From: Escherichia phage ime09
Sequence record: NC_019503.1
Strand: one strand, 5' to 3'
DNA length: 64,000 nt
Numbering within the stretch: the first letter of the stretch is position 1; each line of letters opens with the position of its first letter. The notes beneath the pieces were generated by a model. It was not told where the DNA came from. It searched no databases and saw only the letters and a list, made by a program, of their open reading frames with translations. This document shows, in pieces, positions 2,430-9,686 of the stretch. The position numbers and the translations under genes were made by a program.

Positions 2430-2459
2430 ATTATACCACATCCTTGTGGTAAAGTAAAC
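2430..2459 (-). promoter_or_regulatory. sigma70-type early promoter GTTTAC-N18-TATAAT
   Basis: reverse complement of attataccacatccttgtggtaaagtaaac; upstream of rIIA.1. Confidence 0.6.
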
Positions 2460-4279
2460 TACTGGCTCATCCATTCTTTACGAAGGTCAGCATTATCTCC
2501 CATGAGCATTTCAAAAAGCTCTTTCCAGTTCTCAGGAAGTTTAACAACATCATATACTGGGTTTTGAATCATCTCACGATATTCAGATTTTTCCAAAGAG
2601 CCAAGTCCCTTAATATAACGGATGCTATGTTTAGGTAGAGCATCTTTGGCACTCTCATATTCAGCGACTGTATAAAACCATTCTTGTTTTTTACCGACCT
2701 GAGCGATGATTACAGGAGTTTTGACAAAGCGAATTCTTCCTTGTTCAAACAGTTCTGGCCAATTACTAAAAAATCCGAGCAGAGAAGGATAAATGCTTCC
2801 TAGACCATCATGGTCAGCGTCAGTCATAATGGCAATATTATGATAATTTAAGTTTTCAGCCTTTTCACCAAGAACTAATCCAGTGATTGCGCAAATATCA
2901 AACAGTTCTTTATTTTTAAGCATATCAGCATATGACATACCCCAACTGTTGAGAACTTTACCACGTAATGGATAACCACCATGAAGTTCTTTATCACGAA
3001 CATCAATAAGATATCCGATAGCAGAATCGCCCTCAGTCAAGAAAAGAGTAGTATCAACATCTTTACCACAAAGATTCGCTTTAATGTGTTTATGAACCTT
3101 AGCTTTAGAAGCCTTTTTAGCTGCTTTAGTTTCTGCTGCTTTTTCTGCCGCCAATTTACGAGCCAAGGCAGCTTCAATAATTGGCATTAAAATTGCTTCA
3201 TTGTTTAAAATAGCACGTGAAATCTTTTTAGCATCAAGCTGAATATGACTACGAATTTCACCAAATGGAGAAGTCAAACGCTCTTTAGTCTGAGAATCAA
3301 ATCGCATGTTTTTCATATCACGAACGAACATAACGATAGTCAAACATTCTTTAACGCGTGCTTTAGTTACATCAATTTTGAACTTACGTTTGATTTGTGG
3401 AATAAGGTCTTCACAAATATCATCCATAACACAGTCAATGTGATGGCCACCATTCTTAGTATGAATGTTATTAACGTATGTTAATTGACGAAAACCATCA
3501 GGTGAACGACCGACTGCAATAGAACAGTTTTCTTGTTCTTGAACGATAGCATGCTCATCATATTGGCGTGCATATTTCTTAAAATTACCCTGAACCTTTT
3601 TACCATTAAAGGTAAATTGAATATCAGGATAAACTACTGCAAGTGTCTGGAGACGATCTAGTGTAATGTCAAGATAAACTTGAGATAGCTCATTAGTTTC
3701 AAATGACATAAAATCAGGAATGAAAGTAACACGTGTTCCTTTCCATTTTCCAGGAATATCTTCCCATGATTTATTTTCCATGCCATTTGAACAACGAACT
3801 ACAATATTATTTTGACCGTCGCCAGTTTCACCGACAAACATCACAGAAAAAATGTTAGTTAAACTAGAACCAACACCGTTCATACCGCCAGTGACGCGTT
3901 CTTTATCATCACCGAAGTTACCACCTGCTTTTGGAATAGTCCAAGCAGCAACAGGACCAGGAATTTCTTCACCAGTAGGTGTTTTAACCATCGCTTGCGG
4001 AATACCACGACCGTTATCTTCAACTGTTACTTGATTGTTTTTAATAGTAACATTAATTTTATTTGCGAATTTAAACTTAGTACGAATACCTTCATCTACT
4101 GAGTTATCGATAATTTCATCAATAAGCTTAACAAGACCAGGTACATACTGAACACTCTCCCATTTACCAAACAGAAAGCGCTCATGCATTTCATTAGCAG
4201 AAGAACCAATGTACATGCCGCTACGCTTTTTGATATGTTCAATATCGCTCAGAATTTTAATTTCATTCTTAATCATCAC
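2459..4279 (-). CDS. 39: DNA topoisomerase II large subunit gp39, unsplit (covers T4 39+60)
   Basis: 606 aa; GyrB-like GHKL ATPase and TOPRIM-type motifs; single continuous ORF. Confidence 0.9.
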   Translation of the reverse strand: MMIKNEIKILSDIEHIKKRSGMYIGSSANEMHERFLFGKWESVQYVPGLVKLIDEIIDNSVDEGIRTKFKFANKINVTIKNNQVTVEDNGRGIPQAMVKTPTGEEIPGPVAAWTIPKAGGNFGDDKERVTGGMNGVGSSLTNIFSVMFVGETGDGQNNIVVRCSNGMENKSWEDIPGKWKGTRVTFIPDFMSFETNELSQVYLDITLDRLQTLAVVYPDIQFTFNGKKVQGNFKKYARQYDEHAIVQEQENCSIAVGRSPDGFRQLTYVNNIHTKNGGHHIDCVMDDICEDLIPQIKRKFKIDVTKARVKECLTIVMFVRDMKNMRFDSQTKERLTSPFGEIRSHIQLDAKKISRAILNNEAILMPIIEAALARKLAAEKAAETKAAKKASKAKVHKHIKANLCGKDVDTTLFLTEGDSAIGYLIDVRDKELHGGYPLRGKVLNSWGMSYADMLKNKELFDICAITGLVLGEKAENLNYHNIAIMTDADHDGLGSIYPSLLGFFSNWPELFEQGRIRFVKTPVIIAQVGKKQEWFYTVAEYESAKDALPKHSIRYIKGLGSLEKSEYREMIQNPVYDVVKLPENWKELFEMLMGDNADLRKEWMSQ

Positions 4280-5583: not shown

Positions 5584-5798
5584 TAATAAATTTCCTTCCA
5601 GTAAGTTGTGCCATCTTCAGTAATTTCACGAAATACACCGTAAATTGGTTGTTTATCACCAACCTTTTCATACACATAAACCGAAGTCAAGTGAGTAAAC
5701 TTAACAGTATGTTCCTTTTGAACTACTACCAAATCTGGATTGAATAATACATCTTCAAATTCGTCATTAGTGCAGTTCTGAACAATTTTACGTTTCAT
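5583..5798 (-). CDS. hypothetical protein (71 aa)
   Basis: co-directional ORF. Confidence 0.45.
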
Positions 5799-5811
5799 TA
5801 CAATTTCCTCA

Positions 5812-6093
5812 TTAATTGAACAGTGGAGCGATGCGTTTCAGAAGAGTAGCAGCACCTTTGGCGAATTTTACATCATGAAAAACAGTTTCTTCTTCCGTTA
5901 CAACACGAACTTTAATGTTTTCACAATCCCAATTTTTACGAACAATCTTCAAAAGCTGCAGTAAATCTTTACATTCAGCAATATCGATAACACATCCACG
6001 AGAATCTTCCATTATCGCACGATAACCATAAGCCATACCATAATCGTTGAAAGATTGCTCGATGATAATTAAGTTTTCCATTTTATTCTCCAA
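5812..6093 (-). CDS. hypothetical protein (93 aa)
   Basis: co-directional ORF. Confidence 0.5.
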   Translation of the reverse strand: MENKMENLIIIEQSFNDYGMAYGYRAIMEDSRGCVIDIAECKDLLQLLKIVRKNWDCENIKVRVVTEEETVFHDVKFAKGAATLLKRIAPLFN

Positions 6094-6105
6094 GTTGTTT
6101 TCTGT

Positions 6106-6148
6106 ATCAGTAGTTGATATTGATATAGTACCATAATCAACTACTGAT
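6106..6148. repeat. perfect 13-bp inverted repeat, 17-bp loop
   Basis: atcagtagttgat ... atcaactactgat; loop attgatatagtaccata resembles -10 region of repeated promoter cassettes. Confidence 0.6.
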
Positions 6149-6188
6149 GTATATAGTTTTATGAAAAAATTTTAAACTTTATGCAAAT

Positions 6189-6608
6189 TTATGCTAAAGC
6201 TGCTTCGCACCATTTTTTAATTTGGAATTCAGGAACTACCATGAACTGGCCTGCAAAAACAATATTGTAGAGCTTGACGCCATCTTCTACCCAACGGTCC
6301 GAAATAAAACCAGCGACTTGATTCGTTGTCCATGGAGTTCCATCTGTTGCCGCCGCAATTGTGAATTTATGGTCTTTTACAACTAAAACTGAAGAACAAA
6401 GTTTCCATTTAAATGCGCTTTCTTCTGGCTCAATGAATTGGCTTGAGACATAACCAATGTTACCATCAGCGTCACGAACTTTAACCTCGTTACGACCAAA
6501 AACTGGATCACTTACAGAAAGAACTTCAACCAGCTTTCCCGCAACTTTAGAACGAGAAGCAACGGATACATATACGTAATCGCCAGTAGAGAGATTTACA
6601 ATATTCAT
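6189..6608 (-). CDS. paralog family member 1 (KOW/SH3-like N-terminus, conserved C-terminal block)
   Basis: C-terminal GFISDRWVEDGVKLYNIVFAGQF shared with next two genes. Confidence 0.6.
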   Translation of the reverse strand: MNIVNLSTGDYVYVSVASRSKVAGKLVEVLSVSDPVFGRNEVKVRDADGNIGYVSSQFIEPEESAFKWKLCSSVLVVKDHKFTIAAATDGTPWTTNQVAGFISDRWVEDGVKLYNIVFAGQFMVVPEFQIKKWCEAALA

Positions 6609-6617
6609 AATAATTCC

Positions 6618-7094
6618 TTAAGCTTTACGAGGAGAAGCATAACGAGTGATTTCAGATTCTTCAACAACCCGGAAGTCACCTAAAAATACAATATTGTATA
6701 GCTTTTTACCGTCTTCAATCCATTGGTCTGTAATGAAGCCACACATCCTATCAGTTTTACTTGGACCAGCGAAATCATCAATATAATCGAATTTTTCAGC
6801 AGTTACAAATTCAACGCCTTTGCACAACGGCCATTTAAATTGTGCATTAGACTTAGTGGATTCAACTTCTTTAACAGAAGCAAAATGAGCGCTAACACGA
6901 GTTTCCAGAAATTTAGGACTTACGTAAGCGTACTGAGTTTCAATTTTTCCAGAACTAGGAATGATTCGAACTTTAACTTCTTTAACACGACCAGTACCAT
7001 TAGTACGAAGTCCTACCACTTCAACTAGACGACCTGCAGCTTTAGAACGAGATGCAGACGATACACGCTTAATTTCACCAATATTAATAATCAT
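6618..7094 (-). CDS. paralog family member 2
   Basis: C-terminal GFITDQWIEDGKKLYNIVFLGDF; N-terminal SSASRSKAAGRLVEV similar to member 1. Confidence 0.6.
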   Translation of the reverse strand: MIINIGEIKRVSSASRSKAAGRLVEVVGLRTNGTGRVKEVKVRIIPSSGKIETQYAYVSPKFLETRVSAHFASVKEVESTKSNAQFKWPLCKGVEFVTAEKFDYIDDFAGPSKTDRMCGFITDQWIEDGKKLYNIVFLGDFRVVEESEITRYASPRKA

Positions 7095-7139
7095 AGTTAT
7101 CTCTCACTTGTTAAAAAGATTTTATACTCCACGGGACCA

Positions 7140-7169
7140 TTATACTCTGATCCCAAGAGTTTGTAAACT
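7140..7169 (-). promoter_or_regulatory. early promoter GTTTAC-N18-TATAAT
   Basis: hexamers read directly; upstream of 6618..7094. Confidence 0.55.
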
Positions 7170-7170
7170 A

Positions 7171-7710
7171 TTAATTCAAAATAGCTACCACTGCACTACG
7201 AGGTACTACGCTAAAATCACCTGCATGAACAACGTTCAGAAGTTCAACACCATCTTCAATCCATTGGTCAGTTACCCAACCACAGACCGAAATAAATGGG
7301 GTCTTAATAGCTACAGCACGAGTCAAAAGGTCAGTAGGATCGCATTCTTGGAAGAGGATAAGCTCTGCTTCAAAGACTATAGTTTTAATTACTTCATCAT
7401 TATCTAAGCGTTGTGCTCGAATCACGTAGGCTTTATTCTTATCATACCAATTACTTTTTGAAAAACTTTTAACCACGAACTCGCCTTCACCAAAAACGCT
7501 AGTCAATGCTTTATAACCCAAACTTAGTTCAGTAGTTTTAATTTCAGTTTCAACCAGTTTGTAGGTTTTGCCGATTTCAATAGCGGTAGTCATAGTAGGT
7601 TCCTTAATTTCCAGTGGTTTAACAGGGCATACATAAGTGCTTACAACATCAAAATCAATCAGTTTAGCTACCGGATTTGGTGTGTATTCAGGATTATAAT
7701 TAAATTTCAT
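7171..7710 (-). CDS. paralog family member 3
   Basis: C-terminal GWVTDQWIEDGVELLNVVHAGDF. Confidence 0.6.
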   Translation of the reverse strand: MKFNYNPEYTPNPVAKLIDFDVVSTYVCPVKPLEIKEPTMTTAIEIGKTYKLVETEIKTTELSLGYKALTSVFGEGEFVVKSFSKSNWYDKNKAYVIRAQRLDNDEVIKTIVFEAELILFQECDPTDLLTRAVAIKTPFISVCGWVTDQWIEDGVELLNVVHAGDFSVVPRSAVVAILN

Positions 7711-7712
7711 AA

Positions 7713-8252
7713 TTATCTCATTTCAATAAAATCTACAAGTTCAGCATGGGATTTACGGAACATTACTTGGTGCCCGCCAATGATAACTTCATCTTCAGGA
7801 ACTTCGTATACAGCGAGATAAAATCCTTTAGAAGATAATTCTTCCCGCTCTTCTCGTGTGAACCATCTCATCATATCATATTCACTAGCGAAAGCAAAAT
7901 GATAAAGAGCTATAAACCATCCTGGAATATGATATTCTACTCCAACATAATCTTTCTTGAACTTAGTATTAATTACTATATTAGCGTTTTTAACTAATAG
8001 TTTATCTTCATGTGGTACAGGAATTCTTTTATTATCCTCACTATGATGCATAAAATTAGGTCTACTATAACCTACACGTAATAGCCACTCTTCGCTCCAT
8101 GAATCTATTATACTCCTGTATGGCGTTATTTGAACACAAAGATTTCGACGTATTGTTATAGCATCTTCACAATTAAGAATACTAAACGATGATTCAACAC
8201 GATAAATTTTCATTTTATTATCCTCAGTAGCTATGGTGTTATAATACCACAA
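7713..8252 (-). CDS. hypothetical protein (179 aa)
   Basis: co-directional ORF. Confidence 0.5.
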   Translation of the reverse strand: MWYYNTIATEDNKMKIYRVESSFSILNCEDAITIRRNLCVQITPYRSIIDSWSEEWLLRVGYSRPNFMHHSEDNKRIPVPHEDKLLVKNANIVINTKFKKDYVGVEYHIPGWFIALYHFAFASEYDMMRWFTREEREELSSKGFYLAVYEVPEDEVIIGGHQVMFRKSHAELVDFIEMR

Positions 8253-8269
8253 CTAACCGAGGAAGTAAA
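8240..8269 (-). promoter_or_regulatory. early promoter GTTTAC-N18-TATTAT
   Basis: hexamers read directly; upstream of 7713..8252. Confidence 0.5.
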
Positions 8270-8276
8270 CAACTTT

Positions 8277-8960
8277 TTATCGTTTTGTTGGAAGAGATAG
8301 AGGATCGCACTCTTCCTCTGACGGAGCATCTTCAAGACCCATAGCATATCGCAAAGCATACTTCATCATCAGGATGTCTTTCGCACAGTCATGAATAGAA
8401 TCATGCGCAACGAATCCATCTAAAGTTCCCTTTGGAAGAGGACACGTGGTCATATCGCGAACAAGCAGAAGTGCTTCAATTCTGGTACGAATATCACGTT
8501 GATTCCAGAATTTACATGGTTCTAACTTAAATGTGTCAAGTTCATTCTCAGAAACGCCGTTAAGACGCTGAATATCGCGAATAAGATCAACTAAAATTGG
8601 AAAATCAAACGACATTCCACGGCACCAGCCTTGAGATTTCCAAGGATCGATATTATGTGCATTGATGTAATCATTAAATTTTACAATACCATCGATAGTG
8701 CTTACATCTTCATCTGATGGCGCAATATTTTTTCGAGCTTCAGGAGACTGATTTTTCCACCATTCGATAGTGCTTTTAGTAAAAAGACGATGTCCCTTTT
8801 GGCTTTTTAAATCAAACTTGATTTTAATGCCGCGTGAAACTAATTCATCAAAGGATTCAACTACTTCTGGATTAGGGTCAAAGGCAATAACAGCCAAATC
8901 AATAACAGCTGCCTTTTCACCGCTTCCCATTGTTTCAAAATCTATAATAAAATCAAACAT
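8277..8960 (-). CDS. dexA: exonuclease A (DEDDh 3'-5' exonuclease)
   Basis: 227 aa; N-terminal DFET motif; matches T4 DexA size and position. Confidence 0.85.
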   Translation of the reverse strand: MFDFIIDFETMGSGEKAAVIDLAVIAFDPNPEVVESFDELVSRGIKIKFDLKSQKGHRLFTKSTIEWWKNQSPEARKNIAPSDEDVSTIDGIVKFNDYINAHNIDPWKSQGWCRGMSFDFPILVDLIRDIQRLNGVSENELDTFKLEPCKFWNQRDIRTRIEALLLVRDMTTCPLPKGTLDGFVAHDSIHDCAKDILMMKYALRYAMGLEDAPSEEECDPLSLPTKR

Positions 8961-9454
8961 TAAATTTTCCTCGCTAAATCGCGAATTTGACCTACAGTAT
9001 AATCTTGGATATAAACTTTATTAATGGGCTCATCAATAAATTTTGCCATAGATTCAATATCTTTTTGTATCTCTTCAAGACTGTATACTATCTTTAAAGC
9101 TTTTTCGCGAATAGTAACATTATCAGGTCCTGAATTTTCTTGAATGACAGCTTTAACATTTGCCATAAGAGATTTAAACTGATGCAAACTTAATTCAATC
9201 ATTAAAACCGCCTTATAAAGATGGCTAATTTCACCTAAAACATAATCACTGATTGTGACAGTTTTCACTTCACCACAAAAGAATTCTAACGCAATCAAAT
9301 CTCGTTCAATTTCTTCCAATTGAAGCATTAACTTGCCTGATTCAATTTTCACGTTTTTGCGATTTTTACTATAAGCTATTTCATAAATTTCGCTCACTTT
9401 ATCTTGAAGTAGATAAAACTGATCTTTAGTTATTTCCACGAATAGCTTCCTCAA
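8960..9454 (-). CDS. hypothetical protein (164 aa)
   Basis: co-directional ORF between dexA and dda. Confidence 0.5.
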   Translation of the reverse strand: MRKLFVEITKDQFYLLQDKVSEIYEIAYSKNRKNVKIESGKLMLQLEEIERDLIALEFFCGEVKTVTISDYVLGEISHLYKAVLMIELSLHQFKSLMANVKAVIQENSGPDNVTIREKALKIVYSLEEIQKDIESMAKFIDEPINKVYIQDYTVGQIRDLARKI

Positions 9455-9686
9455 ATTTAATCAGCAGCTTACAGACACTTTCATCTAATGTAATTACCGT
9501 ATCTGTATTACTATGATATGATTGTTTTTCAATTCGTTTAATTGCTAGTATAGTATCACTTATAAGATTAAGCTTATAAAGGAGCTCAGCTCCTGTTATC
9601 ATAACACTGAGGTTATCTTGCTTATCAGTATGCTTCTTTATACCATCTATTAGACGATTTAAATATTTTGAATTGATGTTAATCAT
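9426..9686 (-). CDS. hypothetical protein (86 aa)
   Basis: co-directional ORF. Confidence 0.45.
   Translation of the reverse strand: MININSKYLNRLIDGIKKHTDKQDNLSVMITGAELLYKLNLISDTILAIKRIEKQSYHSNTDTVITLDESVCKLLIKFEEAIRGNN

Follow-up and report, generated by a model that had tools for sequence, protein, structure and literature searches.

The window, that is, the whole 64,000-nucleotide stretch of Escherichia phage ime09 DNA (NC_019503.1) that was analysed, carries three adjacent genes of the motB family:

6189..6608, minus strand: motB-like paralog, 139 aa (PF17613, phrog_1671; PP01_010 / RB51ncORF010c / RB69p010 type)
6618..7094, minus strand: motB, 158 aa, the basic member, with a predicted KOW/SH3-like N-terminal domain, a linker and an all-beta C-terminal domain
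7171..7710, minus strand: motB.1, 179 aa counted from Met1 (phrog_2333), with an alternative start, Met40, at 7593

Every gene between 4000 and 10500 is on the minus strand, and the order is that of T-even phages: gene 39 (topoisomerase), 39.1, 39.2, goF, cef, a small ORF, the three motB-family ORFs, motB.2, dexA and dda. Transcription would pass through motB.1, then motB, then the motB-like gene. The cluster occupies the same place and strand, in the early region from gene 39/cef to dexA, as in T4, PP01, RB69 and SP18. The window is from a Tequatrovirus close to PP01 (PP01/RB51-type). A megablast search with 5800-8300 matched 709 phage records, nearly all of them Tequatrovirus and relatives, and the best match was Escherichia phage PP01 (94% identity over 100% of the query). 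RefSeq annotates the PP01 orthologues as a MotB-like transcriptional regulator (PP01_010), motB (PP01_011) and motB.1 (PP01_012), and the 139-aa protein has 100% amino acid identity to PP01.

All three proteins exceed the curated gathering score of 25 bits that sets membership in Pfam PF17613 (motB). The 139-aa protein scores 72.1 bits. The 158-aa protein scores 142.7 and matches the profile end to end, and the 179-aa protein, at 34.1 bits, matches through residues 141-174 only, on profile positions 120-153. The 139-aa protein (E 1e-50) and the 158-aa protein both fall in phrog_1671 (MotB-like transcriptional regulator). The 179-aa protein matches phrog_2333, a PHROG of unknown function that corresponds to "Category 2/4" of PMC7827196, over its full length (E 1e-81, residues 1-179 on profile positions 1-210) and contains the MotB.1-type C-terminal core GWVTDQWIEDGVELLNVVHAG. 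The MotB architecture, a KOW-like N-terminal domain followed by the MotB C-terminal domain, is also found. An earlier sequence-only reading had described adjacent ORFs of 139, 158 and 179 aa in the neighborhood of T4 motB; its coordinates are exact, the C-terminal peptides it quoted occur verbatim, and RefSeq, Pfam, PHROG and synteny identify the genes as motB-like, motB and motB.1 themselves. This T4-like phage carries the early gene set of motB-like, motB and motB.1 that has been described before.

Several neighboring genes have features of their own. The 164-aa ORF at 8960-9454 (minus) is an in-frame DexA.2-DexA.1 fusion, each half of which is 90% identical to the separate T4 protein, and the two halves are paralogs of each other (25-28% identity, Smith-Waterman z 11.5). 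An extra 86-aa ORF (9426-9686) lies between this fusion and dda. The start of the motB.2 ORF (7713-8252, minus) is probably over-extended, with Met14 (MKIYRVESSF, about 8213) the most likely start, as in T4 and PP01. For the 93-aa ORF at 5812-6093 (minus), the most likely start is the ATG at 6081 that follows GGAG, as in the PP01 annotation. Gene 39 (2459-4279, minus) is a single 606-aa ORF with no T4-like 39/60 split, and PP01 is likewise unsplit.

The element common to the three motB-family proteins is a C-terminal block of about 37 residues:

6213..6323, minus strand: block in the 139-aa protein, residues ~96-132, placed by alignment transfer from the hhalign match
6642..6752, minus strand: block in the 158-aa MotB, residues 115-151 (hhalign), modelled as the final four beta-strands of the C-terminal domain
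7183..7293, minus strand: block in MotB.1, residues 140-176 (hhalign), where the AF2 model is most confident (pLDDT 72-80)

BLASTP aligns the 139-aa and 158-aa proteins at 42% identity over 155 columns (E 2.3e-29), the 139-aa and 179-aa proteins at 53% over 36 aa (E 8e-11) and the 158-aa and 179-aa proteins at 58% over 33 aa (E 3e-12). The corresponding Smith-Waterman scores lie 43, 15 and 15.6 SD above 1000 shuffles. When the homologue profiles of MotB.1 and MotB were compared by hhalign, residues 140-176 of the 179-aa protein paired with residues 115-151 of the 158-aa protein with a probability of 98.5% (E 3e-15), over 37 columns only. The proposed paralog family is therefore real. The block consensus, G-[FW]-[IV]-[ST]-D-[QR]-W-[IV]-E-D-G-x-[KE]-L-[YL]-N-[IV]-V..., is of complex rather than low-complexity composition; together with the E-values and the shuffles, this excludes a chance or low-complexity similarity, the outcome that could have undone the reading. 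Nucleotide identity of the block among the three genes is only 55-67% with many synonymous differences, which indicates conservation at the protein level. Identical residues use the same codon in only 7/18 to 12/21 cases. DNA-level conservation or a recent gene conversion was considered as a source of the shared block and is ruled out by the nucleotide identity.

The relationship outside of the block differs among the three genes. The 139-aa and 158-aa proteins are full-length paralogs (42-47% identity) with the motif VS.ASRSK.AG.LVEV common to their N-terminal domains, which upholds the N-terminal segment that had been assigned to this pair. MotB.1 resembles the other two in its last ~37 residues only, and its N-terminal module is of another kind, so the term "triplication" goes too far. 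The 139-aa protein is acidic (net charge -2, pI 5.4), as is MotB.1 (-7, pI 4.8), whereas the 158-aa protein is basic (+6, pI 9.3) with a charge of +8 in its N-terminal domain. The charge and pI of T4 MotB (+6, 9.3) match those of the 158-aa protein.

Two further features bear on how motB and the motB-like gene may be transcribed:

7139..7167, minus strand: early-promoter-like site TTTACA-17-TATAAT, 11/12 consensus matches, within the 76 nt that separate motB.1 from motB
6106..6148, minus strand: perfect 13-bp stem-loop ATCAGTAGTTGAT...ATCAACTACTGAT, directly downstream of the 139-aa gene

A near-identical promoter-like sequence is found upstream of T4 motB, and the sequence of the 7139-7167 site points to a role as the early promoter of motB. 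The motB-like gene starts 9 nt past the motB stop codon and has its own AAGGA; with this spacing the two genes are probably co-transcribed. The stem-loop has a predicted folding energy of -20.9 kcal/mol (z -4.2), and none of the 200 shuffles was as stable. A scan for intrinsic terminators from 5700 to 8400 found none, and since no T-run follows the hairpin, it is not a canonical intrinsic terminator. It may mark the 3' end of the motB/motB-like message or act as an RNA-stability element. The promoter-like site, the 9-nt spacing with its AAGGA and the hairpin together suggest a single early motB/motB-like transcript.

The start of motB.1 can be read in two ways. Met1 (7710) is 2 nt past the stop codon of motB.2. 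The Shine-Dalgarno sequence (AAGGA) is better at Met40 (7593), which corresponds to the short form annotated in PP01. In the AF2 model of MotB.1 (pLDDT 57), residues 1-42 are disordered. Residues 17-34 (LIDFDVVSTYVCPVKPLE) carry a motif that also occurs in divergent relatives, where it is internal, either directly before PTDLL (RB69-type MotB.1, P0241) or between two heads (P0230). The 197 database homologues of MotB.1 are mostly 179-181 aa long. The conserved residues 17-34 and these database lengths favor the long form, so a start at Met1 is likely on sequence grounds, although unproven. A weaker promoter-like site (ATGAGA-17-TATAAT, 7693-7721 minus, 10/12 matches) overlaps the motB.2 stop codon and Met1. 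Transcripts from this candidate promoter could encode only the Met40 form, and it is conceivable that two MotB.1 isoforms are made.

The head of MotB.1 also sets this genome apart from PP01:

7320..7580, minus strand: N-terminal module of motB.1, 60-82% nucleotide identity to PP01

The rest of the cluster is 96-100% identical to PP01 at the nucleotide level, apart from one 89% stretch that covers the motB.1-motB gap and the start of motB. The closest protein matches of motB.1 are KNP5 and W143 rather than PP01, and these two phages, the best matches for the head, have a T4-type single motB. Since only the head diverges from PP01 and the flanks are conserved, a pattern of mosaic breakpoints, the module has been exchanged by recombination.

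Some reference copies of motB.1 are broken. In T4 NC_000866 (minus, record ~7259-7329), the annotated 119-aa MotB.1 ends in GGWVTDQWIGRWR and a stop codon, inside the shared block. The truncation is caused by one extra G (attgGaagatgg against attgaagatgg), and the next frame still reads EDGVELLNVVHAGEYSVVPRSAVVAILN up to its stop codon. T4 strain 147 (KJ477685) has an intact, unannotated motB.1 ORF of 143 aa, and the frameshift allele had 0 exact matches among IMG/VR viral contigs. Either the T4 reference sequence contains an error here or the frameshift is a mutation specific to the strain. The form of MotB.1 in published experiments was the 13.8-kDa one, and work based on the 119-aa annotation may have tested an incomplete protein that is truncated inside the block. 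In RB69 NC_004928, motB.1 (132 aa) and the 29-aa ORF RB69p012 together make up one MotB.1 C-terminal domain interrupted by two frameshifts, and four other Mosigvirus genomes (JS09, G53, p000v and SF) have an intact 164-aa motB.1. RB69p012 is thus a piece broken off motB.1, and the "Category 3 peptide" of PMC7827196 is a gene fragment. Two records retain even less. P0252 is a 43-aa protein in which the motB.2 N-terminus is fused to the last 28 residues of MotB.1, and Citrobacter phage CrRp10 (NC_054899, 151292-151366) keeps only the last 25.

The rate of change was estimated against four Mosigvirus orthologues. The 139-aa gene gave a dN/dS of 0.06-0.16 and the 158-aa gene one of 0.24-0.29. The paralogs differ from one another by a dS of 1.29-1.39. 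Synonymous sites are therefore saturated, which indicates that the duplications are old; it also makes the paralog dN/dS uninformative, and the orthologue comparisons were used instead. Both motB and the motB-like gene are under purifying selection, a statement limited to those two genes. The family had been described as "diversifying", for which old paralogs with orthologue values of 0.06-0.29 (motB-like and motB) give no support.

A tblastn search with the 139-aa protein matched 772 records, 206 of them at an identity of at least 80% and the other 566 only below 60%. Among the matches listed, the records at 80% or above have two MotB-type places and those below 60% have one. The totals (978 places in 772 records) are consistent with 206 two-copy records. 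The 158-aa protein found 200 records at an identity of at least 60% (942 places in 736 records overall). This copy-number survey of related phages, which the sequence-only reading had suggested, places the motB and motB-like pair in ~206/772 records, or about a quarter, with one T4-type motB in the remainder. The pair is carried by Tequatrovirus (PP01, RB51, RB68, RB3) and Mosigvirus (RB69, JS09, G53, p000v, SF). The two types appear to travel together, since among the matches listed they always co-occur. The window copies are ~45% and ~37% identical to T4 MotB. With both copies this far from T4 MotB, the pair behaves like a cassette that stands in for the single gene of T4.

A profile built from the three C-terminal domains had only 29 matches among 1.84 billion representative proteins. 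Apart from two repeat-inflated ones, these are small proteins of 43-251 aa. The two exceptions, P0247 (1642 aa, 10 stretches) and P0251 (637 aa), proved on inspection to be chance matches and were rejected as family members. Chimeras are found in several combinations: T4-type or RB69-type MotB heads on a 139-aa-type C-terminal domain (P0103, P0036), KOW-type heads on MotB.1-type C-terminal domains (P0231, P0241) and MotB.1 proteins with two heads (P0230, P0233). As read from these sequences, the variability of the family is the exchange of N-terminal modules by recombination and not a fast divergence by point mutation. The motB family can be viewed as one conserved C-terminal block that carries interchangeable heads.

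The AF2 model of the 158-aa protein has two all-beta domains joined by a disordered linker (residues 68-83), with a mean pLDDT of 79.6 and values of 89-93 in the C-terminal domain, where strands are predicted at 110-127, 130-137, 140-145 and 149-152. In a Foldseek search of viral models, the relatives of this protein were mainly from other T4-like phages (Potts1, phiR1-RT, CC31, PS2). The 53BP1 tandem Tudor domain aligns over 92-96 residues of the MotB.1 model. The predicted folds match SH3-like (Tudor/KOW) barrels. In Pfam, no KOW or Tudor match was found for any of the three proteins, only SH3_3 at E 0.079, below the cut-off, and a PDB sequence-profile search with the MotB alignment gave only two matches at E about 0.8. 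The suggestion of KOW/Tudor-like folds is thus borne out at the level of predicted models but not by a curated KOW, Tudor or SH3 profile, and the models suggest a resemblance of fold rather than membership in those families.

Most of the functional background comes from T4. Patterson-West et al. 2018 (PMC6070864) reported toxicity of T4 MotB in E. coli, tight DNA binding that is independent of sequence and co-purification with H-NS and StpA, as well as a 2-fold effect on burst size (doubling). Patterson-West et al. 2021 (PMC7827196) found that MotB alters H-NS footprints and up-regulates 75 host genes. For MotB they predicted a KOW domain at the N-terminus and an OB-fold domain at the C-terminus. 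They also noted that MotB and MotB.1 share a C-terminal domain for which a duplication was proposed, and described extra motB copies in phages such as RB69 ("two copies of motB"). For the N-terminal domain of MotB.1, Kim et al. 2025 (PMC12152347) proposed an LSm-like fold, a bent five-stranded antiparallel beta-sheet. In that work a T4 delta-motB.1 strain had no phenotype, T4 MotB.1 had no RNA effect and was partly dimeric on SDS-PAGE, and AlphaFold3 gave no confident MotB.1 homomultimers.

The locus is probably best explained as a motB-family cluster that arose by old duplication and domain shuffling and whose members are sub-functionalised on a common block. The three genes would be early, non-essential host-takeover genes. 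By analogy to T4 MotB (~45% identical), the 158-aa protein would be the working MotB, an abundant early protein that binds and coats DNA tightly and non-specifically early in infection. It may re-arrange H-NS/StpA-DNA complexes, which would lift H-NS silencing of some genes and increase burst size. The 139-aa paralog seems to keep the two-barrel architecture in an acidic form, and MotB.1, also acidic, would have another small beta-barrel head, described in the literature as LSm-like, in front of the final ~37 residues of the MotB C-terminal domain. The conserved block may be a common functional core, possibly a shared surface for docking or assembly that completes an SH3-like barrel, and the N-terminal heads would give each protein its own binding property. 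Such heads would make the three proteins sub-functionalised rather than redundant. Only one copy is basic in two-copy phages; therefore, the paralogs are probably not redundant. The array itself would have formed by old duplication followed by recombination at the borders of the conserved block.

The main rival reading, an unlikely one, gives the block a different role. It may be a homo- or hetero-oligomerisation module through which the acidic members pair with basic MotB and tune or restrain its toxic coating of DNA, so that they would be modulators and not independent effectors. The opposite net charges within one co-located and co-oriented cluster are consistent with this, as are the block being the sole element common to all three proteins, the probable co-transcription of motB and the motB-like gene across 9 nt, the constant pairing of the two types among the matches listed (with totals that agree with 206 two-place records) and the partial dimerisation of T4 MotB.1 on SDS-PAGE (PMC12152347). 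However, AlphaFold3 did not predict confident homomultimers of MotB.1 (PMC12152347), and ~566 phage records have one MotB and no acidic MotB-like partner. It is very improbable that the extra copies are redundant or decaying duplicates without a function of their own. Decay would fit the dispensability of the region in T4, the frameshifts of MotB.1 in the T4 and RB69 references and its near-complete deletion in CrRp10 and P0252. This reading is largely refuted by dN/dS, since the 0.06-0.16 of the 139-aa gene indicates strong purifying selection; that gene is intact in ~206 records from two genera, and both T4 strain 147 and four Mosigvirus genomes besides RB69 have an intact full-length MotB.1. 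The chance that the block is a fortuitous or low-complexity similarity, or a DNA-level element, is negligible. Nothing was found in its favor; the E-values (1e-10 to 1e-29), z scores of 15-43, the hhalign probability of 98.5% and the complex composition refute the former, and a nucleotide identity of 55-67% with many synonymous differences refutes the latter.

A more speculative extension, which is doubtful at present, is that the ~37-residue block is a portable docking or assembly module. The three differently charged proteins would then assemble together or on one host target, for instance H-NS/StpA-DNA filaments, with the basic member as the DNA binder and the acidic two as modulators or as adaptors to other ligands, for instance RNA, and T-even phages would swap the heads freely by recombination at the block borders. 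If this were true, the null results for T4 MotB.1 would partly reflect a frameshift-truncated protein that lacks the block.

Old duplication with domain shuffling, the preferred explanation, carries little weight as a discovery. Earlier work and annotation (PMC7827196, PMC12152347; RefSeq, Pfam, PHROG) already cover the family, its common C-terminal domain, the idea of a duplication and genomes with several copies; therefore, the original observation is a correct rediscovery of an ordinary feature. Its modest value is in the pointers it gives to those who work on MotB, namely the charge asymmetry, the exchangeable heads and the truncated motB.1 references of T4 and RB69.

Among known systems, the SH3-like small beta-barrels (NusG/Spt5 KOW, Tudor, chromo, PWWP and the tandem Tudor of 53BP1) are only 8-18% identical to these proteins, with no sequence relationship. 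[quoted passage not shown] T4 MotB.1 (NP_049627) is like the window protein in its position directly upstream of motB, its C-terminal block, its PTDLL...PF lead-in and its full-length match to phrog_2333. However, its head is a different allele, tblastn aligns T4 from residue 111 only, and the window protein is extended by 39 residues at its N-terminus. As annotated (119 aa), the T4 protein is without most of the shared block because of the 1-nt insertion, and the T4 MotB.1 tested in PMC12152347 likewise lacked most of it.

T4 MotB (NP_049626; PF17613, "Modifier of transcription") resembles the 158-aa protein in its locus between cef and dexA, the early-promoter-like sequence upstream, its length class, its layout of a KOW-like N-terminal and a beta C-terminal domain, and its charge of +6. 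The window protein is only ~45% identical to it and is an allele of the RB69 type (~80%) with a shorter linker. T4 has a single motB, whereas the window phage adds the acidic 139-aa paralog. RB69 contains motB.1, the 29-aa ORF, motB and a MotB-like gene. In the Mosigvirus group motB.2 lies between the motB-like gene and cef, on the other side of the pair, and MotB.1 has another N-terminal head. Other close parallels to the window are the adjacent pairs of RB69/Mosigvirus (RB69p011, RB69p010) and PP01/RB51 (PP01_010, RB51ncORF010c), which have the same order and the same 9-nt spacing. The amino acid identities to these pairs are 85-100% (139-aa protein) and 76-97% (MotB).
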